Source: an uncultured Planctomycetaceae bacterium
GTDB lineage: Bacteria > Planctomycetota > Planctomycetia > Planctomycetales > Planctomycetaceae
Assembly (NCBI GenBank): GCA_963815195.1
Contig: CAWFGE010000019.1
Location: 64,001 to 128,000, forward strand
Direction: 5' to 3'
DNA length: 64,000 nt
Below are positions 8,779-25,341 of this stretch, piece after piece; the stretch's first letter is position 1, and each line of letters opens with the position of its first letter. The notes below the pieces were generated by a model that had not been told where the DNA came from, searched no databases, and saw only the letters and a program-made list of their open reading frames with translations. Both the position numbers and the translations under genes were made by a program.

Positions 8779-9624
8779 TCAGTAATTTCCGACGGGCTGA
8801 TTGTCGTTGCGTGCGCCGAGTCTTTGCCAGGTTCCCATGGCCGAGCCGACGCCGTCCTGGGCGTTGATCGAGTCGGAAAGAAACTGCACGCTGCCGTCGG
8901 CGAGTGCGAAGTGGGCTCCGCCGGTATGTTGGCTGCCGAAGGCGTTTTGATCTCCCGAATTGATCCGCGTGAGATCGGCCGTCTGGCTCATCAGAAAGTT
9001 GCGGTTGGTGTCGGGGTGATTTGTCGAGCCGCCCCAGATGAAACCCCGGTGACTGAAGTAATCCCGCTCGCCGAATAGGAGCGTGTTGCTGGTCCCGTCT
9101 GACATCTGGATGCTGCTGTTCTGATAGAGGGTGCCGTTGCCTACGGGATTGGAGAGGTTGCTGCCCATGATGCCGATGTAATTGGAAATTCCGATTTCCT
9201 TTTTTGCGTTGACTTGCGGTTTCGACTTGTCATTCCATTCGGGATGGGAGTCGGACGGGCAGTGGAATAGCGCAAGCGTGGTGCGGAGCCGGCTGAGCAG
9301 AGTTCCGTTCGCGAGGTCCATCGTTCCGGACGGTCCCAATGTCTCAAAAAGAGGACGCTGGTCGACGTAGGGCAGGAGCATAGTTCCCCAACCCCAGCCG
9401 GTGTCCACAACATAACCCGACGGAAACTTTCCATGGGCGTCGTGGTAGTTGTGCATCGCCAGCGAGAGTTGCTTCAGGTGGCTTTTGCATTGGGTGCGGC
9501 GGGCGGCTTCTCGAGCCGCTTGAACCGCCGGCAGCAACAGCGCAATCAGCACGGCGATAATGGCGATGACGACCAACAATTCAATCAGAGTGAAGGCCCG
9601 GCGTTTTGTTCTAGGACTTGTCAT
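8779..9624 (-). CDS. DUF1559 family prepilin-type (PulG-like) protein
   Basis: AFTLIELLVVIAII..LLPAVQAAREAARR, CPSD, DGTSNT..GE, H-TGGAHFALA-DGSV (H-X9-DG). Confidence 0.93.
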   Translation of the reverse strand: MTSPRTKRRAFTLIELLVVIAIIAVLIALLLPAVQAAREAARRTQCKSHLKQLSLAMHNYHDAHGKFPSGYVVDTGWGWGTMLLPYVDQRPLFETLGPSGTMDLANGTLLSRLRTTLALFHCPSDSHPEWNDKSKPQVNAKKEIGISNYIGIMGSNLSNPVGNGTLYQNSSIQMSDGTSNTLLFGERDYFSHRGFIWGGSTNHPDTNRNFLMSQTADLTRINSGDQNAFGSQHTGGAHFALADGSVQFLSDSINAQDGVGSAMGTWQRLGARNDNQPVGNY

Positions 9625-9774
9625 GGCACAGTCCCCATTGATACGCGTGAGCGGCAAGGCGCTAGCCGCCGGTTTTGTTCTTCACGTCGCGCCATTGGGG
9701 GGCAGGAGTTCAACGCGGTAATTCAATGAAACCGAGACAACCATAAAATCCCAGGCGTCTTTCTGCCACTGTTG

Positions 9775-9783
9775 TGGTATAAC
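9775..9783 (+). promoter_or_regulatory. Extended -10 element (TGgTATAAC) upstream of the ECF sigma gene
   Basis: TGn-TATAAC lies 40 nt before the TTG start at 9823. Confidence 0.45.
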
Positions 9784-9822
9784 CGGTGGCAGGGGGTTCC
9801 CCCGATATTTGAGGCCACGCCC

Positions 9823-10392
9823 TTGCCCGACGTCACCCGCATCTTGTCGCAGATTGAAGCCGGTGATCCGTCGGCGGGAGAGCAACTCTTACCGCTGGTG
9901 TATGACGAACTGCGAAAGTTGGCCGCGGCCAGGATGTTTCAAGAGAAGCCGGGGCAAACGCTGCAAGCGACTGCATTGGTGCACGAGGCTTATCTCCGGT
10001 TGGTGGATGTCGAGCAGGCCCAGCATTGGAACAGCCGAGGGCATTTTTTCGGGGCGGCGGCCGAGGCCATGCGAAGGATTCTGGTCGAGAACGCCCGGAG
10101 AAAAAGCGGACCCAAAGCGGGTGGCGTGCATTGCCGAATGGAATTGTCGGAAGTGGCGGTGGAAATTCAGAAACGTGACGTGGATCTGATCGCTTTGAGC
10201 GAATCGCTCGACAAGTTGCAAAGCCAGGATCCCCGGGCCGCGGAGTTGGTCAAGCTGCGTTTTTTTGCCGGGTTGACCCGGCGTCAGGCGGCAGAGGCCC
10301 TCGGTATATCTGTCGCAACGGCTGATAATGACTGGGCTTACGCAAAAGGTTGGCTGAAGGCGGAACTTGCGGGAACATTCGGCTCCGGATGA
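9823..10392 (+). CDS. ECF-type RNA polymerase sigma factor (TIGR02999 / ECF43-like, kinase-associated)
   Basis: DVTRIL..LLPLVYDELRKLAA..TLQATALVHEAYLRL..FFGAAAEAMRRILVE..LRFFAGL..W..AKGWL. TTG start after GAGG. Confidence 0.92.
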   Translation: MPDVTRILSQIEAGDPSAGEQLLPLVYDELRKLAAARMFQEKPGQTLQATALVHEAYLRLVDVEQAQHWNSRGHFFGAAAEAMRRILVENARRKSGPKAGGVHCRMELSEVAVEIQKRDVDLIALSESLDKLQSQDPRAAELVKLRFFAGLTRRQAAEALGISVATADNDWAYAKGWLKAELAGTFGSG

Positions 10393-10496
10393 AAAGCTGG
10401 CTTTTTTCCAAAATCTCAAGAATTCGTTAGAGCTTTTGCCGGCCATTCTCGCACTGACTCACAGAACTGTGTCAAAGCGGGAGGTGCAGGCGAATC

Positions 10497-13400
10497 ATGG
10501 CTGGCGAAATCCTCGACGAAAAAGCGATCTTCAACGTCGCCCGGAAAATCGATTCGGAGGAGGCGAGAGCGGAATATCTGCACCAGGTCTGCGGGGCCGA
10601 TGGAAATCTGTTTGAGCGAGTGGACACGCTGCTCCGCGCGTACGAAGAGCAGGCGAGCTTTCTGGAATCGCCCGCCGCCGATAGCTTCTCTCCCACGATT
10701 GATCAACCGCCGTTAGAAGAGCCCGGCACGCAGATCGGCCCCTACAAGTTGCTGCAACAGATCGGCGAAGGGGGCATGGGCGTGGTCTATATGGCCGAGC
10801 AGTCCGAGCCGGTGGAACGGCGGGTCGCCCTGAAGATCATCAAGCCCGGCATGGATACTCGGCAAGTCATCGCGCGGTTCGAGGCCGAGCGGCAGGCGCT
10901 GGCGATGATGGATCATCCCCACATCGCCAAGGTGCTCGACGCGGGCGCGACCGACAGCGGCCGGCCGTATTTCGTGATGGAATTGGTCAAAGGCGTTCCG
11001 ATCACGCAATACTGCGACGAACGCCATCTGACGCCGAAGCAGCGATTGGAGTTGTTTCTTTCCGTGCTCCTGGCCGTTCAGCACGCGCACCAAAAAGGCA
11101 TTATTCACCGCGACATCAAGCCCACCAACGTGCTGGTGGCGGAATATGACGACAGGCCGGTGCCCAAGGTGATCGACTTCGGCGTGGCCAAGGCCACCAG
11201 CCAGAAGCTAACCGAGAAGACCATGTTCACGGAATACGGGCAACTCGTGGGCACGCTCGATTACATGAGTCCCGAGCAGGCCAAGCTCAACCAGATGGAC
11301 ATCGACACGCGGAGCGACATCTATTCGCTGGGCGTCCTGCTCTATGAACTGTTGACGGGCGACACGCCTTTCGATCGTACCCGCCTGCGGTCCGCCGCTT
11401 TTGAGGAGATGATGCGGATCATCCGCGAGGAAGAGCCGCCCAAGCCCAGCACCCGGCTCAGCACCAGCCAGATGTTGGCTTCCGTTTCCGCCAATCGCAA
11501 CACCGAACCCAGAAAACTCAGCACGCTGGTCAAGGGGGACTTGGATTGGATCGTGATGAAGGCCTTGGACAAGGACCGGGGCCGGCGTTACGAGACCGCC
11601 AACGGCTTCGCGGCCGACCTTCAGCGGTATCTGGACAACGAACCGGTCGAGGCTTGCCCGCCGTCTGCGACATATCGGCTGACAAAGTTCGCAAGGCGAA
11701 ACCGGGGCGTACTGTTGACAACAGCGGTTATCGCGCTGGCCTTGGTCTTGGGAACCGCAGTCAGCACGTGGCAGGCCATCCGCGCGATCCACGCGGAGAG
11801 CCAAGCCCGAGACAACGAGACACGCGCAATCGGCGAGGAACGTAAAGCCAACGCCGAAAGAGAACGGGCGGCGGCCAGCGAAAAACAAGCCGAGGCCGAT
11901 TTCCAAAAGGCGCTGGAAGCCGTCGATCGCATGTTGTTCCGCGTCGCGGATGATGCGCTCCGCAACGTGCCCCAAATGGTGCCAGTGCAAGAGAAGGTTT
12001 TCAGGGATGCCGTCGAGTTTTACGAAAAGCTGCTCGCAGATCGTCCCCGTGATCCTAAGTTGCGTTTTGCAACCGCGATGGCCTGCAAGAACCTTATCGG
12101 ACACGATAAGGTTGGCAAACCCCAGAAAATGCTGCAACGCGCCCTGGAAATACTTAACGAACTGCATGAGGAATCGCCTGAGGACTCGGAGGTTCGGCAT
12201 GCTCTCGCGCATTGCTATAACTGGCTGGGATGGAAGGGTGGGGACAGTCTCATTTCAGCGGAAAATTGCCATCGCCGTGCAATCGAGTTGATGCTTCCAC
12301 TGAAGGACTCACGTCCCGAAGACCTGGCACGCAGCTATGGGAGCCTCGCAGTGAATCTGAAGGCACAACGCCGGTTCGATGAGGCCGAGCAGACGTTTCG
12401 AATGGCGCTGGAGTTTGGCTCCGATGACGGGCAGGTTTACCACGGACTGGCGCTTTTGCTGGAACGGGTCGGACGCGTTTCGGAAGCGATCGACGCCATG
12501 AATCGCGCAATTGATGCAGCGCAAAATTCCATCCACGACTCCTCCAAATGGAGAACAAATGCTGAGGAAAGACTCGCTTCCGACCATTCTCACCTGGGTA
12601 GCATGCTGATTCGTGCCCAGCGACCGGAAGAGTCCCTGCCGCATCTTCTGAAGTCTCAACAGATTTATGAACGTCTGGCGCGCGACTTTCCCAGTTTGGA
12701 CCGATTCAGCGGCGCGTTAGACCGGTCACGGGCTGCGTTGGTGGGGGCCTACCACACACTCAAGAAAGATGAAGCTGCTCGGCAGATCCTGGTTCAACTC
12801 CAACCCAGCACGGCGCAGGAATATCTGACACGGGGTAATCTGCGCAAAACGCTGGGGGAGATGCCAGAGGCTCTCGCCGACTACGACAAGGCCATTGAAC
12901 TCGACCCCGCGAATGCCAAGGCGTATTTACAACGCCAGCTTCTCCATCAGGAATTGGGCCAATTCGATCAGGCTGTGATCGATCTGACGCACAGGCGCGC
13001 TCTGATGCCGGAGAGATCGGACATTCACAACAGTCTCGGCGTCGCCCTCGACAAAAAGGGAGATCTGGACGAGGCCATCGCCTGCTACGAAAAGGCTATC
13101 GAACTTGATCCGAATTACGCTCTAGCGCACAGCAATCTCGGCGCCGCGTGGGCGAAGAAAGGATTGCATGACAAGGCCATCGCCTGCGACAAGAAGGCCA
13201 TCGAACTTAGTGAGCAATTGGTCGCTGATTTTCCCGAGAATTCGAGTTACCAGGGGAGTCTGAAGAAGTGCCACGACTCGTTCGCCGTCAACGTTCGGAG
13301 AGTGGACCCGATCGAGCGGGCGGAGCAAGTCCGTCTTGATGCTCTCGCGTTTTACGAGGCGTTGGCCAAACAGTTTCCAAAGCGTTCCGCCGCGCATCGT

Positions 13401-14705
13401 GCGCGAGAGGCCGCCATGCGTGAGAGCCTGGCCGAATTGTTGAAAACGACGAACCGACCTCAGGAGGTCGAGGAGCACTATCGCCGTGCTCAGGCGATCT
13501 GGCAGCAGCTCGTCGTCGAGTTGCCTGAAAAGCCAGAGTACGCGGTCCGTCTCGCGGTCGGCGACACTCGGCTAGGAAAATGGCTTGCCGCTCAAAGTCA
13601 TTTTAAGGCAGCGGAGGCGGCCTACCGTCAAGCGGTTCAAGGATATGAGAAACTCGCCAGGGAATTCCCCAAAAGCAGCGGTTACCAGATCAATCTGGCC
13701 GATTGTCACACGGATCTCGGCGATTTTCTGGCTCGCTCAGCCCGGCTTGGCGAGGCGGAACAATCGCACCGGCAGGCCGTCACGTTGCTGGAAAAACTGG
13801 TTGTGGATGACCCGGGCAATTCTGCCTATCGGGCCAGGCTGGCCCACAAGCAAAACTGGCTCAGCGGCGCGCTCAAGGCGTTGGGCCGCGACACGGAGGC
13901 CGAAGAGGCGATACGACAGGCCCTATGGACTTTCGAGAATCTCGCCGCCGAATTTCCAGAAGTCGCCGATTACCGCTACAACTTAGCTTGGGAGCATCTT
14001 TACCTTTCTAATCAGATGTTGGCTGCCAGTCGGACTGCCGAGGCGGAAAGGGAGAATGCTCAGGCTCTCGATCTGTTCGCGGCCGTCGCCGCCGAGGCGC
14101 CTACGAACGCCAAATACCGTGCAGCATTGGCGTCTACTCATCACAGATTGGCAATGCAATTTTTGGCCGGCCAGCGGTTCGAAGAGGCCGCGAACGCTTA
14201 CGGCCAAGCCGTGGATCTTTCGCGGCAACTGGTCGCCGATTTTCCCACGAAGTCAGAGTATCCCAAGAGTCTCGCTCTCAACTGCAACAATTTGGCTTGG
14301 CTTCTGGGAACGTGTCCCGAGGCTGGCGTCCGCGATGCCGTCCGAGCGGTTGAGCTAGCCGCAAAGGCAGTCGAGTTGGAGCCGAAGCAGGCGATGTATT
14401 GGAACACGCTTGGCGCGGCCGAGTACCACGCCGGCAATTATCGCGACTCCATAAAAGCGTTTGAAAAATCAACTCAGTTAAGCGCCGATCAACCCGAGAA
14501 TGCCCGCAACACGAGCTTCGATGCCTTCTTCCTGGCCATGGCCCACTGGCAACTCGGCGAGAAGGACGAGGCCCGCAAGTGGTACGACCAGGCCGTCGCG
14601 TGGATGGAAAAGAACAGGCCCAAAGATGCCGAACTGCTCCGCTTTCACCAGGAAGCCGCGGAGTTGCTGGGCATCGGTGACACGAATCCCGAGACGAAAA
14701 AGTAA
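10497..14705 (+). CDS. Hanks-type Ser/Thr protein kinase with one TM helix and a long TPR region
   Basis: IGEGGMGVV, VALKII, HRDIKPTN, DFG, YMSPEQ, SDIYSLG, a hydrophobic segment near aa 405-425, then many TPR repeats. Confidence 0.96.
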   Translation: MAGEILDEKAIFNVARKIDSEEARAEYLHQVCGADGNLFERVDTLLRAYEEQASFLESPAADSFSPTIDQPPLEEPGTQIGPYKLLQQIGEGGMGVVYMAEQSEPVERRVALKIIKPGMDTRQVIARFEAERQALAMMDHPHIAKVLDAGATDSGRPYFVMELVKGVPITQYCDERHLTPKQRLELFLSVLLAVQHAHQKGIIHRDIKPTNVLVAEYDDRPVPKVIDFGVAKATSQKLTEKTMFTEYGQLVGTLDYMSPEQAKLNQMDIDTRSDIYSLGVLLYELLTGDTPFDRTRLRSAAFEEMMRIIREEEPPKPSTRLSTSQMLASVSANRNTEPRKLSTLVKGDLDWIVMKALDKDRGRRYETANGFAADLQRYLDNEPVEACPPSATYRLTKFARRNRGVLLTTAVIALALVLGTAVSTWQAIRAIHAESQARDNETRAIGEERKANAERERAAASEKQAEADFQKALEAVDRMLFRVADDALRNVPQMVPVQEKVFRDAVEFYEKLLADRPRDPKLRFATAMACKNLIGHDKVGKPQKMLQRALEILNELHEESPEDSEVRHALAHCYNWLGWKGGDSLISAENCHRRAIELMLPLKDSRPEDLARSYGSLAVNLKAQRRFDEAEQTFRMALEFGSDDGQVYHGLALLLERVGRVSEAIDAMNRAIDAAQNSIHDSSKWRTNAEERLASDHSHLGSMLIRAQRPEESLPHLLKSQQIYERLARDFPSLDRFSGALDRSRAALVGAYHTLKKDEAARQILVQLQPSTAQEYLTRGNLRKTLGEMPEALADYDKAIELDPANAKAYLQRQLLHQELGQFDQAVIDLTHRRALMPERSDIHNSLGVALDKKGDLDEAIACYEKAIELDPNYALAHSNLGAAWAKKGLHDKAIACDKKAIELSEQLVADFPENSSYQGSLKKCHDSFAVNVRRVDPIERAEQVRLDALAFYEALAKQFPKRSAAHRAREAAMRESLAELLKTTNRPQEVEEHYRRAQAIWQQLVVELPEKPEYAVRLAVGDTRLGKWLAAQSHFKAAEAAYRQAVQGYEKLAREFPKSSGYQINLADCHTDLGDFLARSARLGEAEQSHRQAVTLLEKLVVDDPGNSAYRARLAHKQNWLSGALKALGRDTEAEEAIRQALWTFENLAAEFPEVADYRYNLAWEHLYLSNQMLAASRTAEAERENAQALDLFAAVAAEAPTNAKYRAALASTHHRLAMQFLAGQRFEEAANAYGQAVDLSRQLVADFPTKSEYPKSLALNCNNLAWLLGTCPEAGVRDAVRAVELAAKAVELEPKQAMYWNTLGAAEYHAGNYRDSIKAFEKSTQLSADQPENARNTSFDAFFLAMAHWQLGEKDEARKWYDQAVAWMEKNRPKDAELLRFHQEAAELLGIGDTNPETKK

Positions 14706-14875
14706 TCAACAAGTTTGTGCCGCGCGAGTGAGCGGCAAAAAAAGTGACCGGTGAGGATCGAGCCGCCAAGCACCGCCCTCACCGGTCGGAACCCGTCCCC
14801 GGCGATCGGTCTGCGCGCGGGGGCATGGTCTATCCCATCTTATCGCGGACCGCTTTTCAGCGGGAGAGAAAGATC
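14691..14875 (+). repeat. Cargo-leader repeat copy 1 (kinase tail, hairpin, GGAAC-N16-GTCT, second stem, RBS)
   Basis: Arms GACCGGTGAGG 14746-14756 and CCTCACCGGTC 14777-14787, GGAAC 14788, GTCT 14809, CGGGAGAGA RBS. Confidence 0.9.
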
Positions 14876-16024
14876 ATGTCCAAAACATTTCGAGTGCTGG
14901 CTTTGAGTGTCGTCTTGCTGGTGTTCGCGGCAACGGTGTCCCATTTCGCGGAGGCCAAGGGTAAGCCCGGCGGAGGAGGCGGCGACACAACCGGCTATTC
15001 CATTACGGAGCTTACGCCCCCCGCCGGCTTTGACTCAAGTTATGCCAACACTGCCAACGATTTCGGCGAGGTGGCCGGCGACGCCGGTGCTGACGGCTTC
15101 GCACACGCCGCCTATTGGAAAGTGGACTCGGCCGGCCAACTCCTTTCGGCCGTCGCCTTGCCGCAACTGTTCAATCGTGCTAGCCGCGCCTTTGCCATTA
15201 GCAATTCCGGCGACGTGGTCGGCGGGTCCGACGTAGGACTCGATAACGCGGGCGACAGCATCTCTCACGCGGTGCTCTGGAGGCTCGATTCTGCGGGCAA
15301 CGTCACGAACACGACCGATCTGGGCACGCTCGGCGGCGACTACATCTACAGCGGTGCCAACGGCGTCAATGATTTTGGCTACGTCGTGGGATGGTCCCAG
15401 GTCAAAGTAGCGTCGCCCGACGAGGATCCCATGCCGCGGGCGGTGCTGTGGATCGTGGATGGCGACGGCAAACTGCTGAAGGTCGCCGCCCTGGAAACGG
15501 CCGACAGCTATGCCAACGACATCAACAACAGCGGGCAAATCGTGGGCCGAGCCTTCGACCATGCCGCCTTATGGCAGATCGACGTGGAGGGAAACGTGAT
15601 TTTCGCGACGGATCTGGGCACGCTGGGGGGCCGGAACAGCGAGGCTACGGCGATTAGCGAAACCGGTGACGTGATCGGCTACTCCGAGATGGCCGACGGA
15701 GAAGAACATGCCTTCCGGTATCGCAATGGCGTGATGGAGGACCTGGGCACGCTCGGCGGCACAAGCAGCATAGGCAACGGCGCGAACGGCAATGGGCAGG
15801 TCGTCGGCAGTTCGACATATCCCAGGAGCCAAAACTCGTTCGACCGGCACCCTTTCCTTTGGCAGAACGGCGCGATCTCCGACCTGAGCAAGGCGGGCGG
15901 CCGCTCATGGGATCTCTCTCGTGCTTCAGCAATTGATGCGGGCGGCCGGATTGCGGGGACCGGCACGCTCCAGCTCAACGGAAACACCTGGAAGACCCGC
16001 GGATACCTCTTGACCCCCCAATAG
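14876..16024 (+). CDS. Secreted protein with HAF extracellular repeats
   Basis: Signal peptide, then repeated DLGTLGG..S.A..IN..G.VVG..HA(F/V/A)LW units. Confidence 0.88.
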   Translation: MSKTFRVLALSVVLLVFAATVSHFAEAKGKPGGGGGDTTGYSITELTPPAGFDSSYANTANDFGEVAGDAGADGFAHAAYWKVDSAGQLLSAVALPQLFNRASRAFAISNSGDVVGGSDVGLDNAGDSISHAVLWRLDSAGNVTNTTDLGTLGGDYIYSGANGVNDFGYVVGWSQVKVASPDEDPMPRAVLWIVDGDGKLLKVAALETADSYANDINNSGQIVGRAFDHAALWQIDVEGNVIFATDLGTLGGRNSEATAISETGDVIGYSEMADGEEHAFRYRNGVMEDLGTLGGTSSIGNGANGNGQVVGSSTYPRSQNSFDRHPFLWQNGAISDLSKAGGRSWDLSRASAIDAGGRIAGTGTLQLNGNTWKTRGYLLTPQ

Positions 16025-16063
16025 CATCCGTGGCTGGCCCCGCTGGCTTATGAAGCAACACAT

Positions 16064-16242
16064 GAGACGAAAAAGTAATCAACAAGTTTGTGCCGCACGA
16101 GAGCGGCAAAACAAGTGACCGGTGAGGATCAGCCGCCAAGCAAGCCCTCACCGGTCGGAACCCGTCCCCGGCGATCGGTCTGCGCCGAGGGTCTGGTCAA
16201 TTCCATTCTACCGCGGACCGTGTTTCAACGGGAGAGAATACG
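16064..16242 (+). repeat. Cargo-leader repeat copy 2
   Basis: Begins with GAGACGAAAAAGTAATCAACAAGTTTGTGCCGC, identical to the kinase 3' end. Arms 16117-16127 and 16146-16156, GGAAC 16157, GTCT 16178. Confidence 0.9.
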
Positions 16243-16249
16243 ATGTTTC

Positions 16250-17239
16250 GTGTATTCCGAGGTATGCTCCAAGAGGCTGACTAGCGAGGTTTGGCGAACG
16301 GCTTTATGCGTTCCGATGGCGATGATTTGTCTAAACCTCTTTGTTGGTTCGGCACAGGCCGGACCGATGTTCGAGGCCTGGACCGCGCACGGAACGTACT
16401 TCAATGACGATTCGCCAGTGACTGCGGTTGGCAGTTACTCTGCCATCAATCCCGACCTTACTTCAAGTATTGCACTTTCCGAGTTCGCGGTTGCGGGTGC
16501 AGGGTCCGTCAAATCGTTCTCTGAACTGACTTGGAACCAAACAGGCCCCGTGCCGGTGGGAACAGTTGCTGGCGCTGCGTCTTATGCCTACCTGAGACTT
16601 GACGATCTCATGATTACCGGGGGACCGACAAATTCCTATGTCCCCGGTGTCCTGAACCTGCACGTGAGTGGCGGCGTCGGTTCCGGCGCAAGCGCGACTC
16701 CGGAAGGCACTCCGAACCTTTCCGCGGGCGCCACGACGCACGTGGCCTTTTCCGCTGTTTGGGGCGGCGGGCCTTATGGCCAGGGTGGGTTTGGAGGGAC
16801 CATCGATACCCTGGTCGGTTCCAACGGATCGAACTCGACAACCACCTCGGGCATTTTCGACAACTTCGACGGCGATGAACTGGTGAAAAGCCAAGAGTTC
16901 TATCTCCTCGTTGGTAGCCCGTTCGGCTTGACTATGCGGCTCGACACAAACGTCCAAGGATTCGGTACGAGCTACTCCAACGGAACACAGATCGACGTGA
17001 CTGCCCTCGCTGACTTCGGGAATACGATCAGCTTTGCCACCGACGGCCCGGTGTTCGACCTTCCCGACGGCTACACCGTCAACTCCGTCCAAGGGCAAAT
17101 CGTCAACAACCGCTGGCTCGGCGGTGCGCCGTCAAGCCCCGTTCCCGAACCGAATAGCCTCATACTGTGTGCAATTGGGGCTCTCGGCCTCGCCGGCCAC
17201 AACTGGCGTCAACGTACACGCGCGACAAAGTCTGCGTGA
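16250..17239 (+). CDS. PEP-CTERM sorting domain protein (start uncertain: GTG 16250 or ATG 16316)
   Basis: Signal-like ...LFVGSAQA, Ser/Thr/Gly-rich body, C-terminal VPEPNSLILCAIGALGLAGHNWRQRTR. Confidence 0.85.
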   Translation: MYSEVCSKRLTSEVWRTALCVPMAMICLNLFVGSAQAGPMFEAWTAHGTYFNDDSPVTAVGSYSAINPDLTSSIALSEFAVAGAGSVKSFSELTWNQTGPVPVGTVAGAASYAYLRLDDLMITGGPTNSYVPGVLNLHVSGGVGSGASATPEGTPNLSAGATTHVAFSAVWGGGPYGQGGFGGTIDTLVGSNGSNSTTTSGIFDNFDGDELVKSQEFYLLVGSPFGLTMRLDTNVQGFGTSYSNGTQIDVTALADFGNTISFATDGPVFDLPDGYTVNSVQGQIVNNRWLGGAPSSPVPEPNSLILCAIGALGLAGHNWRQRTRATKSA

Positions 17240-17252
17240 TCGCCTACCTAAC

Positions 17253-17377
17253 GCCGGCGAGGAACAGCCGCCAAATAGGCCCACACCGGTCGGAACCCGC
17301 CTCCGGCGCATGGTCTGCGCGGGGGGTCTGGTCAACCCCATTTTACCGCGGACCGTATTTCAACGGGAGAGATAGAT
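17253..17377 (+). repeat. Cargo-leader repeat copy 3 (no kinase tail, degenerate first hairpin)
   Basis: GCCGGCGAGGAACAGCCGCCAA...CACCGGTC, GGAAC 17292, N16, GTCT 17313, ...CCGCGGACCG..TTTCAACGGGAGAGA. Confidence 0.85.
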
Positions 17378-18475
17378 ATGTCCAAAACATTTCGAGTGCT
17401 GGCTTTGAGCGTCCTCGCGACGATGCTCGCGGCGACGGTGTCCCATTTCGCAGAGGCCAAGGGTAAGCCCGGAGGTGACGGCGGCGGCGGGGACACGGGG
17501 GGAGGCACGATTTACTTTAGCAGCAATCCCGGCGGCTTCAGCACGATGGATTCCAATGGCGGCTCTAGAACCTCGCTGGGGATCCACTCCGGTGAGCCGA
17601 GCTTCGAACTGCACAGCGGGCAACGCTGGTACGTGAATGTTCGCGAATTGGCGACCGGAGAGACCTACCCCAACGGGTTGCCCCGGAGTGAACTATTCGC
17701 CTTTAACGAAGGCGGGGCGGTCGTGCAATTGACTAATCAACCTGACCTGGAAGTCTGGTGGCAAGGGTACCGCTGGACTCCAGGGGATAACACGTCTGCG
17801 GGCGATCAGCATGTCTCGTGGACAGCGCGGCGCTGGGAAACCACGACCGACCCCATGACCGGCCAGACTGTGTTTACGGGCAATGTGGTTGATGGAGGCA
17901 TCTACCGCGCAGAGATCTCATTCGCGTTGGGCGAGCCGGTCCTACTCGAACAACCTCCTGTTCCCGTGGTGGCGGTCGAATTGGTTTCCTCTCAGGGTTT
18001 CTGGGAAGCCTATGAGGACGGTCCGACGTTCGCTCCGAACGTGCACTTCCATTCCTGGAGTCCCGGCGGAGCCTTCCTCGTCTACGACCTGCTGGACGAA
18101 CGCAACAAAGGGCTGTGGATCGCTGCCCCGAACAGCAACGATGAGCACCTTCCGGTCTCGTCGACTGGACGGAATCCCGAATGGTCACCGGATGGCGCTC
18201 TGATCGCCTATGATGGCTGGGACGGAATCGAAACAATCAATTTTGACGGCACGAATCCGAAGGCCATCATCTCTTCCACGGCCACGGTCTCCTTCTACGG
18301 GCCGCATTGGTCTCCCACCGGCAGCCACCTGACCTATTCCGCCTTCGATCATTGGTCCAAGCCGTCCGACCCGCTTCCCGGCCGAACTTACGTGTACCGC
18401 GCAACCGCCACGGGGGGTGGGAAGACGAATCTGACCAAGGATTTGAACTCAGCCTCCCCCAGAGCCTGGAGATAA
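17378..18475 (+). CDS. Secreted TolB-like (PD40/WD40-like) beta-propeller protein
   Basis: Signal peptide nearly identical to the 14876 gene. WSPGG, PEWSPDG, PHWSPTG and terminal PRAWR repeats. Confidence 0.82.
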   Translation: MSKTFRVLALSVLATMLAATVSHFAEAKGKPGGDGGGGDTGGGTIYFSSNPGGFSTMDSNGGSRTSLGIHSGEPSFELHSGQRWYVNVRELATGETYPNGLPRSELFAFNEGGAVVQLTNQPDLEVWWQGYRWTPGDNTSAGDQHVSWTARRWETTTDPMTGQTVFTGNVVDGGIYRAEISFALGEPVLLEQPPVPVVAVELVSSQGFWEAYEDGPTFAPNVHFHSWSPGGAFLVYDLLDERNKGLWIAAPNSNDEHLPVSSTGRNPEWSPDGALIAYDGWDGIETINFDGTNPKAIISSTATVSFYGPHWSPTGSHLTYSAFDHWSKPSDPLPGRTYVYRATATGGGKTNLTKDLNSASPRAWR

Positions 18476-18519
18476 TTCGATGGAACCAGGGTCTCCCCAA
18501 AATCTCTGACCCAACAAGT

Positions 18520-18610
18520 GAGACGAAAGAGCGCATGTCGCGGCGAAACAAGTGACCGGTGAGGAACAGCCGCCAGGCAAGCCCTCGCCGGTCGGAACCC
18601 GTTCCCGACA
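18520..18610 (+). repeat. Cargo-leader repeat copy 4 (3'-truncated)
   Basis: GAGACGAAA at 18520, arms 18554-18564 and 18583-18593, GGAAC 18594. The -10 and RBS part is lost. Confidence 0.8.
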
Positions 18611-18654
18611 ACGCACGTCGAACGACGAATTATTTCTCTCGCTTGTCCGCGCCG

Positions 18655-18780
18655 GGCAATCTGGGGCCGGGCATGGTGATCGAGAATTCTCCCGGCAATC
18701 TGACCGGCGGAGCCAGCCCTGCCGCCCGGAATGTGATTTCGGGAAACGGCGTGGGGTTTTCCGGAGTGTTTTCGGGCCTA
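18655..18780 (+). pseudogene. Fragment of a right-handed beta-helix repeat secreted protein
   Basis: GNLGPGMVIENSPGNLTGGASPAARNVISGNG resembles the N.IGG....ARNVISGN repeat of large planctomycete surface proteins. Confidence 0.5.
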
Positions 18781-19230
18781 GAGCTTCTTAATGACATGCA
18801 CGCTCGAGGTCAGTCCGGTTCGGGTCTTGGTCTTTCGCATTAAACGCATCGCGGTCTCGATGGTGTCGAACAGCATGCCTTGGCAGGCCCGCGTGACGTG
18901 CGGAAAGAACCGCCGCTCGATCGGGTTATATTTGGAACAATAGGTCGGATAGTGAGCGACCCGGATCGGCAAGCCAATTTCCCCAGCCAATGCCTCCAAA
19001 TCCTGCTTGAAGATATGGTGTCGATAGTTGTTGCTGCCGCCCGCGTCACAGAGCCAAAGGATTTCCGAGGCATGGGGATAATGCTGCCGGGCGATTCGCT
19101 TCCAATACCAGCGGAAGCTCTCGCAGGCGAATTGGCTGGTCTCATGCGAGGTGCCCAGATTGATGTGTCCATGATTGCGCTTCAAATCGTAGATACCGTG
19201 CGGAATGAGCACGCCGTCGGCCCAAGCGTC
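18778..19230 (-). mobile_element. ISAzo13-family transposase, internal fragment
   Basis: IPHGIYDL..N.G....GTSHETSQFA, LCDAGGSN, HYP.YCSKYNPIERRFF. No N-terminus and no terminal repeats seen. Confidence 0.8.
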
Positions 19231-19563
19231 TGAAACACATTCCGCATCCGCTCTTCGATCTCAGGGTCATACTGATGAAAATACTGAAATGCCATCAATC
19301 CGTTCCTCCGTGGCAAACTTAGTCCTGGTGTCATTCTCCATTTCAATTATAACAAGAATTTCACAGTTGTTTTTTCACCGATCCCAATGGTCCGCACAGC
19401 GGATCCTACTTGGCTTTCGCGCCACCACGAGCCTTGTTATGCTCGGTCTGAGATCAGAAACACCGCTAGGAATAAGTTGATGCCGAATCGCCAGCAGGAT
19501 CTTCGACCGTGGCATGCCACACGACCGTCACGAACTCTCGAATACCCGTAGGAAGACTACGCC

Positions 19564-22365
19564 GTGGATGTACTAATCGGAGAGAAACTACACCAACTTC
19601 GTGCAGACGACATCCTGCGGCTATTGGGAACGGACGCCGAAAGAGGGCTCGACATCCTGGAGATCCAGACGCGTCAGACGCGGTTCGGCCCCAATCTCAT
19701 TCCCGCCGCGAAAGGACACGGACCGTGGATGCGGTTCTTACTGCAATTCCACACACCCTTGGTGTACATCCTGCTGACGGCGGCGGCGATTACGGCACTT
19801 TTGCATGAATGGGTCGATTCGGGGGTGATCTTTGGCGTCGTCCTCGTGAACGCTGTCATTGGATTCCTACAAGAGTCCAGTGCCGCGAAAGCACTGGCGG
19901 CGCTGGCTCAGACGACGTTGACCGAAGCCAGCGTATTGCGTGCTGGCGAGCTGCGGCGAATCTCCTCCACCGAGTTAGTGCCCGGCGACATCGTCTTTTT
20001 GCAGTCCGGCGACAAGGTGCCCGCGGACCTACGGCTATTTCACTGCCGAGACCTTCAAGTCGATGAATCGGCTCTGACCGGTGAATCCGTCCCTGTAAAC
20101 AAACAAGTGGACGTGATGGCTGCTGATGTTTCGCTCGCGGAGCGCCGCAATCTGGCCTATACATCCACTCTTGTGACCTACGGTCAGGCGCGGGGCGTGG
20201 TCTTCGCGACGGGCGCGAGCACAGAGGTGGGGCACATTTCGAAGCTGATTTCCACTGCCGACGTGCTGGAGACGCCGCTGACTCGCAAGATCGCGAAGTT
20301 CAGCCGTCTGCTCATGGTAGTGATTTTAGGATTGGCTGGCGTGACGTTTCTGGTAGGTTGGTTACGCGGGCAACCGGCGTTCGAGATGTTCATGGCTGCA
20401 GTGGCGCTGGCGGTTGGAGCGATTCCAGAAGGGCTGCCGGCGGCGGTCACGATTACGTTGTCGATTGGCGTCGCGCGGATGGCCCGTCGGCGAGCCATTA
20501 TCCGTAAGTTACCCGCCGTCGAGACTCTGGGAAGCACCACCATCATCTGTTCGGACAAGACCGGCACACTCACGGTCAACCAAATGACCGTGAGTGAAAT
20601 CCTGGCGGGAGATTCGCGGTATGAAGTCTCCGGCAGCGGCTATGGCCCCCTTGGCGAGATCAAAAACGTGAGCGAATCAGGCCCCGCCCTGGCCGACAAC
20701 ATCGCTGCACGGGAATGCTTACTGGCGGGCCTGTTGTGCAACGATTCTGCGCTGGCCGAGAAGGCGGGACGGTGGGAGGTTCAGGGCGATCCCACGGAAG
20801 GCGCGTTGATTGCCTCAGCAGCGAAGGGGGGCCTGGACCAAAAGGAATCGTCTGCACGTCTTCCGCGGATCGACGTGATCCCGTTCGAGAGTCAGCATCA
20901 GTACATGGCGTCGCTGCACGAGGGCGAGTCCGCAAAGGGGCGAAAACTGTATGTTAAGGGCGCGGCGGAGGTGGTGCTGTCGAAATCGGTGGCCATGCTC
21001 GACGCGAGTGGTCGCGAGGCTCCGCTGGACGCCGCCGCGGTGCAACGGCAGCTTGAGAGCCTGGCCGTGAAAGGACTGCGGGTGTTGGTGCTGGCCTCAG
21101 CCGACCTGCCGGGCGACACGCAGTCGATCAACCATGCCGACGTGAATGAGCTGACATTGCTGGGGTTGCAGGGGATAATCGACCCGCCGCGCCCGGAAGC
21201 GATCAGCGCGGTGCGGGCCTGCCAGTCGGCTGGAATTCACGTCAAGATAATCACGGGCGACCATGCGCTGACCGCCCAGGCCATTGCCCGACAGCTTGGA
21301 CTGAATGGGCGGGACGCGGCCGAGCCCGAAGGCCCACTGGTACTGACCGGCCGCGATCTAGCGGAGCGATCCGATACCCAATTGATCGACACTGCGGATC
21401 AGGTGGCCGTGTTTGCGCGCGTAACGCCCGAACAGAAACTTCGGCTGGTCCGCGCGCTCCAGGCGGGTGGCCACATCGTGGCGATGACTGGGGACGGCGT
21501 GAATGATGCACCGGCGCTCAAACAGGCCGACATCGGCGTGGCCATGGGGGTCGGTGGCACCGAAGTCGCCAAGGAAGCGGCCGACATGGTCCTGACCGAC
21601 GATAACTTTGCGACCATCGAGGCGGCCGTCGAAGAAGGGCGCGGGGTCTTCGACAACCTGACCAAGTTCATCGTTTGGACTCTGCCCACAAACATGGGCG
21701 AAGGCTTGGTCATCCTGGCGGCGATCTTCGCCGGCACGACCCTGCCAATCCTGCCAGTGCAGATCCTGTGGATCAACATGACCACGGCAGTGCTGCTGGG
21801 ATTGATGTTGGCCTTCGAACCAAAAGAGCCCGACATCATGCAGCGGCCACCGCGCGATCCCAAGACGCCTATCCTCACCGGCGCACTGATCGGCCGCATC
21901 CTGATCGTCTCGGCGATTTTGCTCATCGGCGCGTTTGGATCGTTCGAGTGGGCACTTGGCAAGGGGGCCGAGTGGGGGCGGGACGAGGCGGCCAGCGACG
22001 CCCATGCCCGAACCGTGGCGGTCAATGTGTTCGTGATGGTGGAATTGTTTTACCTGTTCAATTGCCGTTCGCTGACGAAATCGATGTTTCAACTGGGCAT
22101 GTTCTCGAATCTCTGGATCTGGGTCGGTGCGGGGAGCATGGTGGCGTTGCAGTTACTGTTCACCTACGCGCCGTTCATGAACCGGTTCTTCCACAGCGCG
22201 GCGATTGGTTGGGACGCCTGGTGGCGAATCCTGCTGACCGCCGTGGTGGCCTATTTGATTGTGGGGCTGGAGAAGTGGGGTCGGCGGAAATGGGCAGATC
22301 GAGCGTCTGTTGGCGTCATTGCGGTTGCCGATTCCGAAATACGGTCAAAGGGGCCAAAGCGATGA
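19564..22365 (+). CDS. Cation-transporting P-type ATPase (type IIA, Ca2+-ATPase-like)
   Basis: LTGES, AIPEGLP, CSDKTGTLT, KGAAE, DPPR, TGDH, MTGDGVNDAPALK. Confidence 0.96.
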   Translation: MDVLIGEKLHQLRADDILRLLGTDAERGLDILEIQTRQTRFGPNLIPAAKGHGPWMRFLLQFHTPLVYILLTAAAITALLHEWVDSGVIFGVVLVNAVIGFLQESSAAKALAALAQTTLTEASVLRAGELRRISSTELVPGDIVFLQSGDKVPADLRLFHCRDLQVDESALTGESVPVNKQVDVMAADVSLAERRNLAYTSTLVTYGQARGVVFATGASTEVGHISKLISTADVLETPLTRKIAKFSRLLMVVILGLAGVTFLVGWLRGQPAFEMFMAAVALAVGAIPEGLPAAVTITLSIGVARMARRRAIIRKLPAVETLGSTTIICSDKTGTLTVNQMTVSEILAGDSRYEVSGSGYGPLGEIKNVSESGPALADNIAARECLLAGLLCNDSALAEKAGRWEVQGDPTEGALIASAAKGGLDQKESSARLPRIDVIPFESQHQYMASLHEGESAKGRKLYVKGAAEVVLSKSVAMLDASGREAPLDAAAVQRQLESLAVKGLRVLVLASADLPGDTQSINHADVNELTLLGLQGIIDPPRPEAISAVRACQSAGIHVKIITGDHALTAQAIARQLGLNGRDAAEPEGPLVLTGRDLAERSDTQLIDTADQVAVFARVTPEQKLRLVRALQAGGHIVAMTGDGVNDAPALKQADIGVAMGVGGTEVAKEAADMVLTDDNFATIEAAVEEGRGVFDNLTKFIVWTLPTNMGEGLVILAAIFAGTTLPILPVQILWINMTTAVLLGLMLAFEPKEPDIMQRPPRDPKTPILTGALIGRILIVSAILLIGAFGSFEWALGKGAEWGRDEAASDAHARTVAVNVFVMVELFYLFNCRSLTKSMFQLGMFSNLWIWVGAGSMVALQLLFTYAPFMNRFFHSAAIGWDAWWRILLTAVVAYLIVGLEKWGRRKWADRASVGVIAVADSEIRSKGPKR

Positions 22366-22384
22366 GATACGAAAAGCAAGGAGA

Positions 22385-23010
22385 ATGGACATGATAAAAC
22401 GCATTCTGGTGGGATTGGCGGGTACGACCTATACGCGCGTAGCAATTCAACGTGCCGTTACACTGGCGCAATCGCATGATGCTGAGGTGACGGGAGTCAC
22501 CATTCTCGACAGCAGTCGCGTTCGCCGTGATAGCATTGGACTGGTTAAAGCACCGAAGCGCGAGTTGATTCGCGCGGAGCGGCTGGAGATTGCTCGGTCG
22601 CAGATTCAACAGTCCGTCAACGATCTGGAAACTGCCTGCCAGAGAGCCAATATCAAAGACCGGGTCGTCGAGGAGTCGGGCGATGCATTCACGGCGCTAA
22701 TCGCTCTGGCGCGTTACCACGACCTGATGGTGTTCGGCCTGCGCAGTGTCTTCGAGTACGACTTTCTGACCGGCGATCCTGAATCGCTCTTGATCAGGTT
22801 GGTCAGTGCTGGAGTCCGTCCGCTGATTGCGGTATCGGAGAAGCACCGCAGTATCTCGCGCGTGCTGATCGCGTACAGCGGCTCAATGGAGTCGGCCAAG
22901 GCCATGAAGCGGTTCGTGCAAATGCGGTTGTGGCCGGACGCGGAGCTGCGTCTTTTCACGTTTCACCCCTCGAACGACAAGGCTCGTGAACTGTTGGTCG
23001 CCGCGGCGGC
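22385..23010 (+). pseudogene. Tandem-domain universal stress protein, truncated in the second domain
   Basis: IKRILVGL.G...ARYHDLMVFG...RVLIAYSGSMESAKAM. After ELLVAAAA the frame reads antisense through the next gene. Confidence 0.7.
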
Positions 23011-23107
23011 GGTGGCTGGGGTCAGGCTGCCGGAACGGGTATTGAATCAGAAGGCAACGGTATCGGCAGCCTGCCCCCAGACGAGCCAATACGCACATCG
23101 CGAACGA

Positions 23108-23788
23108 TCATTCCGCGATCGGCTTTGCACGCAGGCAGGTGGGTTCGCTTTTCAAAGTTTGGCGGAGAAATGTTCGAATCGTGGCGACATCCGTGAACAG
23201 GCACAGCGGCTGGGGCATTTCGGGATAGCTGCTGATGATCCCGGCCAATTGATTGTCCCGCACCACCGCCCCGCCGCTCTCCCCTTGGATCGGCCGCTGG
23301 TTGACGGCGAGGGGATGGTACAAAAAATCCGTGGGGACGATTCTGCCTTCCGTCACGCGAACTTCACCCCCTTCGGGATAGCCCGCCATAAACACCACCG
23401 CATTGGGAGACAACGGCACGCTCGAAATCGGCAGGCAGCGAAGCTGCGGGATTTCGACCGGAATCTGCAATAAGGCCAGATCGATTCCATTTTCCCGGCG
23501 GGAGCTGACCAGATCGGCGGGAATCCAGCGATTGGCGATGTGGATCGCGATTTCATCCGCCTCGACCAGCACCGCATTCGGGCTGAGCGGAGCCAGCGTG
23601 TGGGCCGCGGTCAAAAACAAATGCCCATTTTCGGGCGTTGTCCCCAAATACACCGCCGACGCCCAGGCCGTGTAAGATCGACAATTCTGCAGGTTGCACT
23701 CGTGCATCGCCACGCGGAGCGGGACGACTTGGGCGAACGCGGACGAACTCAGCGAAGCGAAGATGAGCCACAAAACGACAGTACGCAT
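23108..23788 (-). CDS. Secreted trypsin-like (S1) serine protease
   Basis: Signal peptide ending AFA-Q, LTAAH (His), DLALL (Asp), QGESGG (Ser). Confidence 0.82.
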   Translation of the reverse strand: MRTVVLWLIFASLSSSAFAQVVPLRVAMHECNLQNCRSYTAWASAVYLGTTPENGHLFLTAAHTLAPLSPNAVLVEADEIAIHIANRWIPADLVSSRRENGIDLALLQIPVEIPQLRCLPISSVPLSPNAVVFMAGYPEGGEVRVTEGRIVPTDFLYHPLAVNQRPIQGESGGAVVRDNQLAGIISSYPEMPQPLCLFTDVATIRTFLRQTLKSEPTCLRAKPIAE

Positions 23789-23997
23789 AACGGATTCCTT
23801 TCCAGTTGGGCTTCAAAGCGAGGTTTTCCTGTCATTAAAATCGGCAAACTCGAAATCCGTTTATGACCCAAAACATTGGCGCTGGGCAAAATCTTTTGAA
23901 ATTCGCCGTCCCTGCTTGGTGAGCGTTTCGTTCAGGATTGATCCAACCCCTAGATTACATGGCGGGAATCATGGGGCTGAGGCCCCACGCTCGCCCT

Positions 23998-25341
<1,344 letters not shown>

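Follow-up and report, generated by a model that had tools for sequence, protein, structure and literature searches.

A 64,000-nucleotide (nt) stretch of DNA from an uncultured bacterium of the Planctomycetaceae (positions 64,001 to 128,000 of contig CAWFGE010000019.1, GenBank assembly GCA_963815195.1), hereafter the window, carries four direct copies of one element, arrayed downstream of genes encoding an extracytoplasmic function (ECF) sigma factor and a Ser/Thr protein kinase. Our preferred reading, drawn from comparisons of sequence and held tentatively, with slightly more doubt than belief, is that the element would be a leader folding into a pseudoknot that is gated by an antisense RNA of about 94 nt, and that such leaders stand before genes of exported proteins behind sigma/kinase pairs. 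The element is predicted to act after transcription.

The four copies, the last of them truncated, were recovered by repeat search and alignment much as a preliminary description of this DNA had them. Copies 1 and 2, starting at 14691 and 16064, begin with 38 nt at 97% identity and later agree perfectly over 42 nt (14775-14816 versus 16144-16185). Copy 3, from near 17253, joins the alignment at the first hairpin of the element (P1, described below) and matches copy 2 at 86% over 119 nt. The truncated copy 4 extends from near 18520 to a break at about 18607-18634. A covariance model of the element matches at 14728-14877 (131.6 bits), 16099-16245 (133.7 bits), 17234-17380 (109.5 bits), and 18536-18634 (53.1 bits). 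It had also been claimed that the leaders are conserved up to the ribosome-binding site, and this holds: copies 1-3 finish at a start codon behind GGGAGAG. At the other end, the last 15 nt of the kinase gene lie inside the left flank of copy 1, and they are duplicated 3' of gene 1, the first of the genes served by the copies (cargo genes). As to copy 4, a contig of a related strain, from a landfill metagenome, matches both sides of position 18645, with about 690 additional bases between, so the truncation may be a deletion specific to this genome. The parts of each copy and the neighboring genes are listed in Table 1.

The general anatomy comes from a consensus of 59 elements. The core is about 150 nt long (about 150-190 nt overall) and presents, in order along the plus strand, a run of A residues, the hairpin P1, a short spacer, a second hairpin (S1), a U-rich stretch ending in ATTnTA, one base, and a CGCRGACC box. 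P1 is a stem of 11 bp, GGCCGGTGAG...CTCACCGGCC. S1 is long and imperfect, with a mean of 10.5 Watson-Crick pairs and a loop of 11-13 nt that contains CGGTCYGCG. The box in this loop is complementary to the CGCRGACC box, and the pairing of the two (S2, 8 pairs) is found in 98% of cells, with compensatory changes. Together, S1 and S2 are predicted to form an H-type pseudoknot. In 46 of 63 elements, a stretch of exactly 26 nt containing the Shine-Dalgarno (SD) sequence separates the 3' box of S2 from the end of the match, which lies at the start codon.

How well is the pairing supported? No model fitting went into the seed alignment, for which the structure was chosen by eye; P1 and S2 are paired there in 92.8% of cells. 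In an alignment of 68 matches fitted to the model, the figure is 94.5%, and 14 of the 19 pairs have changed on both sides; none of 500 shuffles reached as high a value, and slid controls gave 28-50%. S1 had to be assessed by constrained folding, sequence by sequence, because both MAFFT alignments and those made with the model lose the register of its arms. Its energy is -17.1 kcal/mol, compared with -12.4 when the 3' flanks are shuffled, and its pairing is retained over 41 distinct sequences of the 5' arm. Some elements contain further hairpins. Copies 1 and 2 have a small one, TGCCGC...GCGGCA, lying between the duplicated 3' end of the kinase sequence and the A-run (14706-14744 and 16079-16114) and specific to this locus. 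Elsewhere (L079 on G003:C14 and L090 on G020:C164, where G numbers denote genomes related to this one), a perfect hairpin of 30-45 nt is inserted between P1 and S1. A long-range pairing between the A-run and the U-rich stretch was considered and rejected, as the copies in the window have an A-run and no U-run.

The two conserved helices point to opposite strands. S2 has 38 G·U cells and only 5 A·C cells, and an independent public set gives 35 versus 3. Since a G·U pair on one strand is a mismatch on the other, S2 fits only the sense RNA. Covariation and the G·U pattern together establish the S2 pairing; that it affects translation is something we infer. P1 has the opposite bias, 11 G·U versus 26 A·C (2 versus 11 in the public set), and the minus strand gives the better fold in 50 of 52 elements, at -30.9 versus -25.2 kcal/mol, a difference of 5.7. 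The A-run that precedes P1 is conserved as well (column 16 is A in 56 of the 59 elements, and four columns are 66-95% A). On the minus strand, the stem of P1 is followed after 2 nt by the complementary U-run, an arrangement resembling a terminator. At the far side of S1, ATTnTA reads TAnAAT on the minus strand, matching at five of five positions in 34 of 48 elements and at four of five in 12. In the public set, whose selection did not involve TAnAAT, the corresponding numbers are 51 and 11 of 68, so that 85 of 116 elements overall have the full match. The -10 boxes of sigma-70 promoters are likewise variable at the third position. The predicted minus-strand RNA, from TAnAAT to the U-run, has a median length of 94 nt and would comprise two hairpins (the complement of S1 and the terminator) and a U-tail. 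Two diverged copies, located below, retain the A-run, P1 (with compensatory GGTTGG/CCAACC), S1, and TACAAT but have lost the 3' box of S2.

In what follows, G000 is this genome (8.9 Mb) and C19 is the contig from which the window was taken. When a 188-nt unit was compared with the whole genome by BLAST, the four copies in the window and three weaker relatives were found, all other matches having E>0.2. Iterated nhmmer searches found 12 copies at E<=1.2e-19, with which the covariance model agrees, in five clusters: four copies on C19, three on C16, two each on C10 and C12, and one on C21, at the end of the contig. Three weak nhmmer matches come after these 12 clear copies, and the genome has two or three diverged copies. 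The two diverged copies, G000:C12:1113773-1113919 (+) and G000:C15:172309-172465 (-), are away from any sigma/kinase pair, and both lie about 150 nt upstream of DUF1559/prepilin-type genes.

The clear copies keep different company. G000 has seven loci with a sigma gene of this type and 87 kinase hits, and six of the sigma genes have an adjoining kinase gene. All four clusters that could be assessed start 2.6-4.5 kb 3' of sigma/kinase pairs, on the same strand, and reach up to 8.1 kb. Across six genomes (G000-G003, G006, and G032), 24 clusters could be assessed, and 21 of them have a PF07638 gene 2.6-5.6 kb upstream on the same strand; one of the three exceptions is divergent and stands beside another sigma/WD40 locus. 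Of 60 relatives searched, 23 give a match at E<=0.01. Strong ones (E<1e-20) are restricted to 10 genomes, from 8 genera of a single family (f1), and the other families give weak matches only, the best at 4.3e-7. Public species genomes were searched with a pattern consisting of the arms of P1 plus the loop box, which is found in at least 129 stretches. Of the 80 public loci among the matches listed, 67 have full-length matches to the model (68 matches), nearly all labeled as metagenome-assembled genomes of Planctomycetota; 12, labeled as actinobacterial, Chloroflexi, or unclassified UBP12, have no full-length match and represent chance matches to the pattern; and one, labeled Syntrophobacteraceae, has a weak match only.

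An open reading frame (ORF) directly follows each element. Among 45 cargo proteins scanned, 10 have the HAF repeat, 4 are weakly TolB-like, 3 have the delta-60 repeat, 3 belong to the FDP family, 2 are prepilin-type, 2 are choice-of-anchor Q, 3 have single other matches, and 18 are without family. Their N-termini resemble signal peptides, often followed by K-P-poly-Gly, or are Arg-rich with an LE-x-LEDR motif; a crude classification places 29 of 68 N-termini under "other", partly owing to wrongly chosen start codons. On these points the preliminary description is upheld. It had the element following TIGR02999/kinase pairs, as it does in four of four assessable clusters of G000 and 21 of 24 over the six genomes, and preceding genes of exported proteins, as it does in G000 and its relatives. 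The element is not the alternative it named, a genome-wide miniature inverted-repeat transposable element (MITE) or repetitive extragenic palindromic (REP) sequence with no link to such loci: G000 has 12 clear copies in five clusters, all assessable ones behind sigma/kinase pairs. Nor is the element a named system so far as Rfam 15 is concerned: a cmscan of window positions 9000-24000 on both strands (E<=5) gave no match beyond a chance one to mir-1992, inside the sigma gene, at 21 bits versus the required 70.

How might the parts work together? The cargo genes are likely to be carried on one transcript that extends from the sigma-kinase genes onward. In this RNA, S1 presents the loop CGGUCYGCG, and the loop pairs with the CGCRGACC box, giving the predicted pseudoknot. 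From the minus strand, TAnAAT and the P1/U-run would together give rise to an antisense RNA, the complement of S1 joined to the terminator. By analogy with plasmid systems discussed below, this RNA would bind the loop of S1 and compete with the pseudoknot, so that each cistron would be translated only above some threshold. The loop is identical in all copies, and the antisense RNA of one leader could therefore act on other leaders as well.

Several observations weigh against this reading. The pair counts come from related sequences and so overstate the number of independent events, and the strand asymmetry of P1 could partly reflect the composition of its loop. Individual sequences support S1 only modestly, with a median z of -1.8 and with 95% of shuffles beaten in just 25 of 52 elements, and its mismatches (5 G·U, 13 A·C, and 30 other) give no clear strand signal. 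On the minus strand, nothing like TTGACA is found at a spacing of 16-19 nt from TAnAAT; there is a G at -14 in 34 of 48 elements, yet it is part of the S2 box. When terminators were sought with a simple scan, copies 2 and 4 alone were flagged, and these by sub-stems; the total, 5, was not above that of shuffles (4.6). Copy 3 has a degenerate P1 and lacks the A-run. The sigma/kinase pairs on C8 and C18 are without an element detectable by nhmmer or covariance model, 2 of the 24 clusters have no sigma gene nearby, and the part played by the sigma factor and kinase is pure inference. The public sequencing runs that match window positions 14000-19000 are four metagenome DNA runs, the best containing 0.54 of the words, and no RNA run. 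The antisense RNA of about 94 nt is to be taken as a prediction, and no -35 box is evident for it.

Perhaps the minus-strand features are incidental, and the element is a structured leader working only in the sense RNA, where P1, S1, and S2 would act in cis to bind a protein or ligand or to set processing, stability, or ribosome access. The covariation of S2 and its G·U pattern on the sense strand are what one would expect of such a leader, as is the 26-nt spacing to the start codon. P1 falls right behind the upstream stop codon, like an intercistronic hairpin, and the conserved U-rich UUUCAUUnUA could be a single-stranded binding site. Still, we think it unlikely, for it leaves too much unexplained: the greater stability of P1 on the minus strand (50 of 52 elements) and its excess of A·C over G·U, the conserved A-run 5' of P1, and a TAnAAT that varies at just its third position in 85 of 116 elements. 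Moreover, the diverged copies retain exactly the minus-strand features and lose the 3' box of S2.

Where would sense transcription start? P1 begins a median of 54 nt (minimum 10) past an upstream stop codon on the same strand in 55 of 58 elements, and in the 59-element consensus nothing is conserved upstream of the A-run. P1 is so close behind the stop codon that there is no room for a conserved sense promoter, and with neither room nor conservation there, the cargo genes are probably read through from the sigma-kinase genes. Candidate signals within the element were considered and rejected. A sense sigma-70 promoter, at its best -10 register (cATTnT), would require TGCGCG as the -35 box; a sigma-54 promoter (GG-N10-GC) over CGGCnT...ATTGT would put its -13 position at the variable n; and GGA sites of the CsrA type are not retained, since the box is CGCAGACC in many copies.

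A promoter recognized by the ECF sigma factor itself was considered as well. The arrays would then be the sigma's local regulon, with a GGAAC-like -35, a -10 within CGGTC, and P1 as the terminator or insulator of the preceding gene. The element does sit behind sigma/kinase pairs, and the copies in the window have GGAAC-N16-GTC. But this motif is found only in the window copies. The family consensus over the -35-like stretch, which forms the 5' arm of the covarying S1 stem, is the unconserved nnGnngCC, and even inside a single array the stretch differs (GGAAGCC, GAGGCC, and GATGCC on C16). Furthermore, transcription starting behind GGTC would exclude the 5' arm of S2 from the RNA, contrary to the G·U evidence, and inspection by eye of the 300 nt upstream of six sigma genes found no similar motif. 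We consider such a promoter improbable.

It is also conceivable, and quite improbable, that the conserved unit is a gene for a trans-acting small RNA (sRNA) on the minus strand, with seed loop CGCRGACCG and P1 as terminator, regulating distant mRNAs, so that its location in leaders would be secondary. Two hairpins, a U-tail, and a -10 box would suit an sRNA gene, and so would the copies without the 3' box of S2, about 150 nt upstream of DUF1559 genes. The covariation of that box with the loop, the fixed distance to the start codon, and the arrangement of one element per gene would then have no explanation.

The arrays themselves differ between congeners. The array on G000:C16 and that on G001:C38 are 90% identical over the sigma gene, the kinase gene, one small gene, the first element, and the HAF gene, and then diverge about 30 nt past the HAF stop codon. 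In the G001 array, unit three (an element plus an FDP gene) is 91% identical to the end of a different contig of G000, C21; the breakpoint here falls between P1 and S1, inside the element. C12 has two tandem units with paralogous genes; one locus of G002 has a single unit, and two other G002 loci have flanks in common with C12 and different cargo. C10 and its counterpart in G003 both keep element-gene-element and differ after the second element. These comparisons (C16/C21 with G001:C38; C12 with the three G002 loci) support the earlier suggestion that the content of the arrays varies, here between congeners, with breakpoints at or inside the element.

The preliminary description went further, proposing that genes are added or exchanged as cassettes through the repeat, each bringing the same expression signal, while noting that no integron integrase is present. 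The latter is correct, in that a search of the whole genome for PF00589 found no tyrosine recombinase linked to the arrays. Of 36 matches, none is on C19 or C16 and none is within 20 kb of the arrays on C10, C12, and C21, the nearest being about 29 kb away, on C21. The 59-element consensus, inspected by eye, has no core site of the GTTRRRY type. The only mobile genes near arrays are broken fragments of ISAZ013, at two of the five arrays, and there are five ISAZ013 loci in the genome. One broken transposase closes the array in the window; the second that adjoins an array is at G000:C12:181538-182460 (L034:3241-4460). Four metagenome runs revealed no joints between copies and no circles, but they are uninformative on this point, with short contigs at a depth of about 4, none spanning the array.

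More improbable still, then, is a recombinase-driven system in which the element would be a structured recombination site, like the attC of integrons, for inserting or exchanging genes of exported proteins: co-directional arrays in which an imperfect palindrome with a strand-asymmetric fold bounds each of the unrelated genes, the junctions just described (30 nt past the HAF stop, and inside the element for the unit found on another contig of G000), the paralogous loci with common flanks and different cargo, and the restriction of what genes 1 and 3 have in common to leader and signal peptide all speak for it, but against it stand the lack of any tyrosine recombinase within 20 kb, of intact mobile genes, of a GTTRRRY-like core, and of rearranged joints in the metagenome contigs (at very low depth), the 26-nt geometry with respect to the start codon, the RNA-level signature of S2, the -10 box and terminator-like hairpin on the minus strand, cargo families that are few and recurrent, and, at C12, a plain tandem duplication of element and paralogous gene. 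The claim of a dedicated cassette site is not supported, and the cassette reading as a whole is upheld only in part. The claim of a common expression signal survives in spirit, except that the signal looks like a post-transcriptional leader module, with shuffling as a by-product of homologous repeats.

Tandem duplication together with homologous recombination between 150-nt repeats is enough to account for the pattern. New units appear to arise when an element and its gene are duplicated in tandem, and the arrays appear to be reshuffled by recombination between their homologous leaders, which would give them a look of cassettes. A broader picture can be drawn, that of a plug-in platform that needs no recombinase, although we think it unlikely. 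A sensor kinase and a sigma factor would head each array; each exported-protein gene would come with a portable leader having its own antisense gate; the common loop would tie the cargo into one RNA network; and the leader would also supply the homology needed to duplicate cargo genes and signal peptides and to swap them between arrays. If this were true, the platform would be a functional analog of the integron, built from regulatory RNA.

The closest parallel to the preferred reading, a leader pseudoknot gated by antisense RNA, comes from plasmids. In the control of repZ, as set out in the passage on it in PMC8053102, an antisense RNA binds a leader hairpin and prevents formation of a pseudoknot needed for translation. 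In IncI-alpha plasmids (ColIb-P9) and IncB plasmids, where the genes are repZ and repA, the loop of the leader hairpin pairs with a site shortly upstream of the ribosome-binding site, as in the element, and a short antisense RNA arising within the leader (predicted, in our case) covers the hairpin and not the distal partner. The further details of IncI-alpha rep control relied on here are those of ColIb-P9. The three parts, of which the antisense RNA is a prediction for the element, come in the same order in both, a likeness of mechanism and not a relationship of sequence. Unlike the plasmid leaders, the element is chromosomal, is repeated before several genes of exported proteins, and is linked to sigma and kinase genes rather than to a replication gene. 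A conserved leader peptide was not noticed either (there is a 13-codon ORF in copy 2 only), though no systematic search for one was made.

Integron attC arrays resemble the present arrays in their co-oriented unrelated genes, in imperfect palindromes that have preserved structure better than sequence, and in content that varies among relatives. They differ in having an integrase, whereas here the element lies on the 5' side of its gene, with SD sequence and start codon at a fixed distance, its pairing is at the level of RNA, and homologous recombination with tandem duplication best accounts for the exchange. Hairpins between cistrons and REP elements are similar in that a stable hairpin stands directly behind the preceding stop codon (median distance 54 nt) and is repeated in an operon-like array. 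The element, in contrast, has only 12 clear copies per genome, all of them at loci of one kind, and is a much larger composite, with a pseudoknot and with promoter and terminator features on the minus strand.

Like the kinase-linked ECF59-62 of planctomycetes, and especially ECF62 (PF07638/TIGR02999), the head of the locus has a Ser/Thr kinase gene at position +1 and no anti-sigma gene, the likeness resting on the description of the group in the supplement to PMC7826278. As in the kinase-linked ECF groups treated there, the kinases carry sensor repeats, WD40 at the C12 locus and TPR in the window. The description of ECF62 in that supplement reports no conserved target promoter motif and mentions no downstream element. 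Searches of the literature, mostly at the level of titles and abstracts, found no publication on the element or on sRNAs or transcription start sites in these planctomycetes, so as far as the searches reach, arrays of leader modules appear to be undescribed in print.

Kinase-linked ECF sigma factors are abundant in Planctomycetota, and for the group that resembles the present one, the description in PMC7826278 reports neither target promoter nor regulon. The element is a candidate for the output of this orphan signaling system, directed to HAF-repeat, propeller, pseudopilin-like, and giant repeat surface proteins, and it offers an experimental handle. It is also a large structured RNA motif absent from Rfam 15, with a pseudoknot that can be tested and a predicted antisense RNA. 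The design is otherwise known from the control of plasmid copy number and would here be reused on chromosomal genes of secreted proteins. Finally, the mosaic arrays suggest that a common leader can drive modular evolution of surface proteins with no dedicated recombinase.

Table 1. Features of the array and its neighborhood in the window (numbered from the first nucleotide of the window).
Feature	Position	Strand	Remarks
ECF sigma factor gene	9772..10392	+	Heads the locus; TIGR02999 203 bits (cut-off 126.15)
Ser/Thr protein kinase gene with long TPR region	10497..14705	+	Pkinase E 6e-45 and many TPR families
Element, copy 1	14691..14877	+	A-run 14737-14743; P1 14746-14787; S1 hairpin about 14788-14831 with loop box GGTCTGCG 14808-14815; ATCTTA 14837-14842 (TAAGAT on minus strand); S2 3' box CGCGGACC 14844-14851; SD GGGAGAG 14862-14868; ATG 14876
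Cargo gene 1, exported HAF-repeat protein	14876..16024	+	HAF_rpt E 1.3e-30; DUF3466 E 3.4e-9
Element, copy 2	16064..16245	+	Left flank repeats 3' end of kinase gene, GAGACGAAAAAGTAA; P1 16117-16156; GGTCTGCG 16177-16184; ATTCTA 16205-16210; CGCGGACC 16212-16219; SD 16230-16236
Cargo gene 2, exported protein with marginal PEP-CTERM tail	16250..17239	+	GTG start; PF07589 E 0.0011
Element, copy 3	17234..17380	+	P1 17253-17291, degenerate; GGTCTGCG 17312-17319; ATTTTA 17340-17345; CGCGGACC 17347-17354; SD 17365-17371; ATG 17378
Cargo gene 3, exported protein with weak TolB-propeller likeness	17378..18475	+	TIGR02800 25.5 bits (cut-off 343)
Element, copy 4, truncated	18507..18634	+	Left flank and P1 (18554-18593) retained; ends after GGAACCCGTTCCCG, before S1 loop box
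Repeat-protein remnant, one ...GGxxxxARNVISGN... unit	18646..18777	+	Ended by insertion sequence (IS) fragment; no Pfam match
ISAZ013-family DDE transposase fragment	18778..19260	-	Closes the array; PF07592 E 2.9e-52 for 18778-19212

Within the window, the sigma gene also matches PF07638 (E 1.2e-58, 198.5 bits versus a cut-off of 21.1), and the kinase gene, at position +1, begins 105 nt past its stop codon. The cargo had been described as a HAF-repeat protein, a PEP-CTERM protein, a TolB-like propeller, and a beta-helix fragment. The first of these identities holds (Table 1), the second is marginal, at 19.4 bits just below the cut-off of 20.7, and the third is a weak likeness. As for the fourth, a remnant of a repeat protein does follow copy 4, though it has no Pfam match that would make it a beta-helix; by tblastn within the same genome, its RNVISGN unit is found in tandem on C21, C24, and C8.

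In the protein encoded by gene 1, a signal peptide leads into a KGKPGGGGG linker. Over the first 31 residues, this protein is 84% identical to the product of gene 3 (14876-14968 and 17378-17470), and the rest of the two proteins is unrelated. This common head is a 31-residue signal peptide together with a K-G-K-P-poly-Gly linker, and in other genera, too, HAF and TolB-like cargo carries a head of the type "signal peptide + KKP..GGGGG", as though this N-terminal module could be swapped. Gene 2, whose product also has an N-terminus like a signal peptide, differs in its start: the in-frame codon is GTG at 16250, and the ATG at 16243 is out of frame. That ATG, at the position usual for starts behind the element, opens the ORF of 13 codons (16243-16284) mentioned above, which overlaps the GTG and could be a frameshift, a leader peptide, or nothing.

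Among the arrays of other loci, a second kind of N-terminus recurs on large repeat proteins behind the element, W-F/L-x-S-W-L-R ... Arg-rich ... LE-x-LEDR-x-x-P/L, for example at L033:6950-9307 (-), L089:3778-9279 (-), L122, and L109. It looks like an export or sorting signal specific to the lineage. At one locus (L083, G032:C41:191500-210000), two sigma/kinase pairs face each other, and between them an array of four units and one of three converge, the elements of both being nearly identical.

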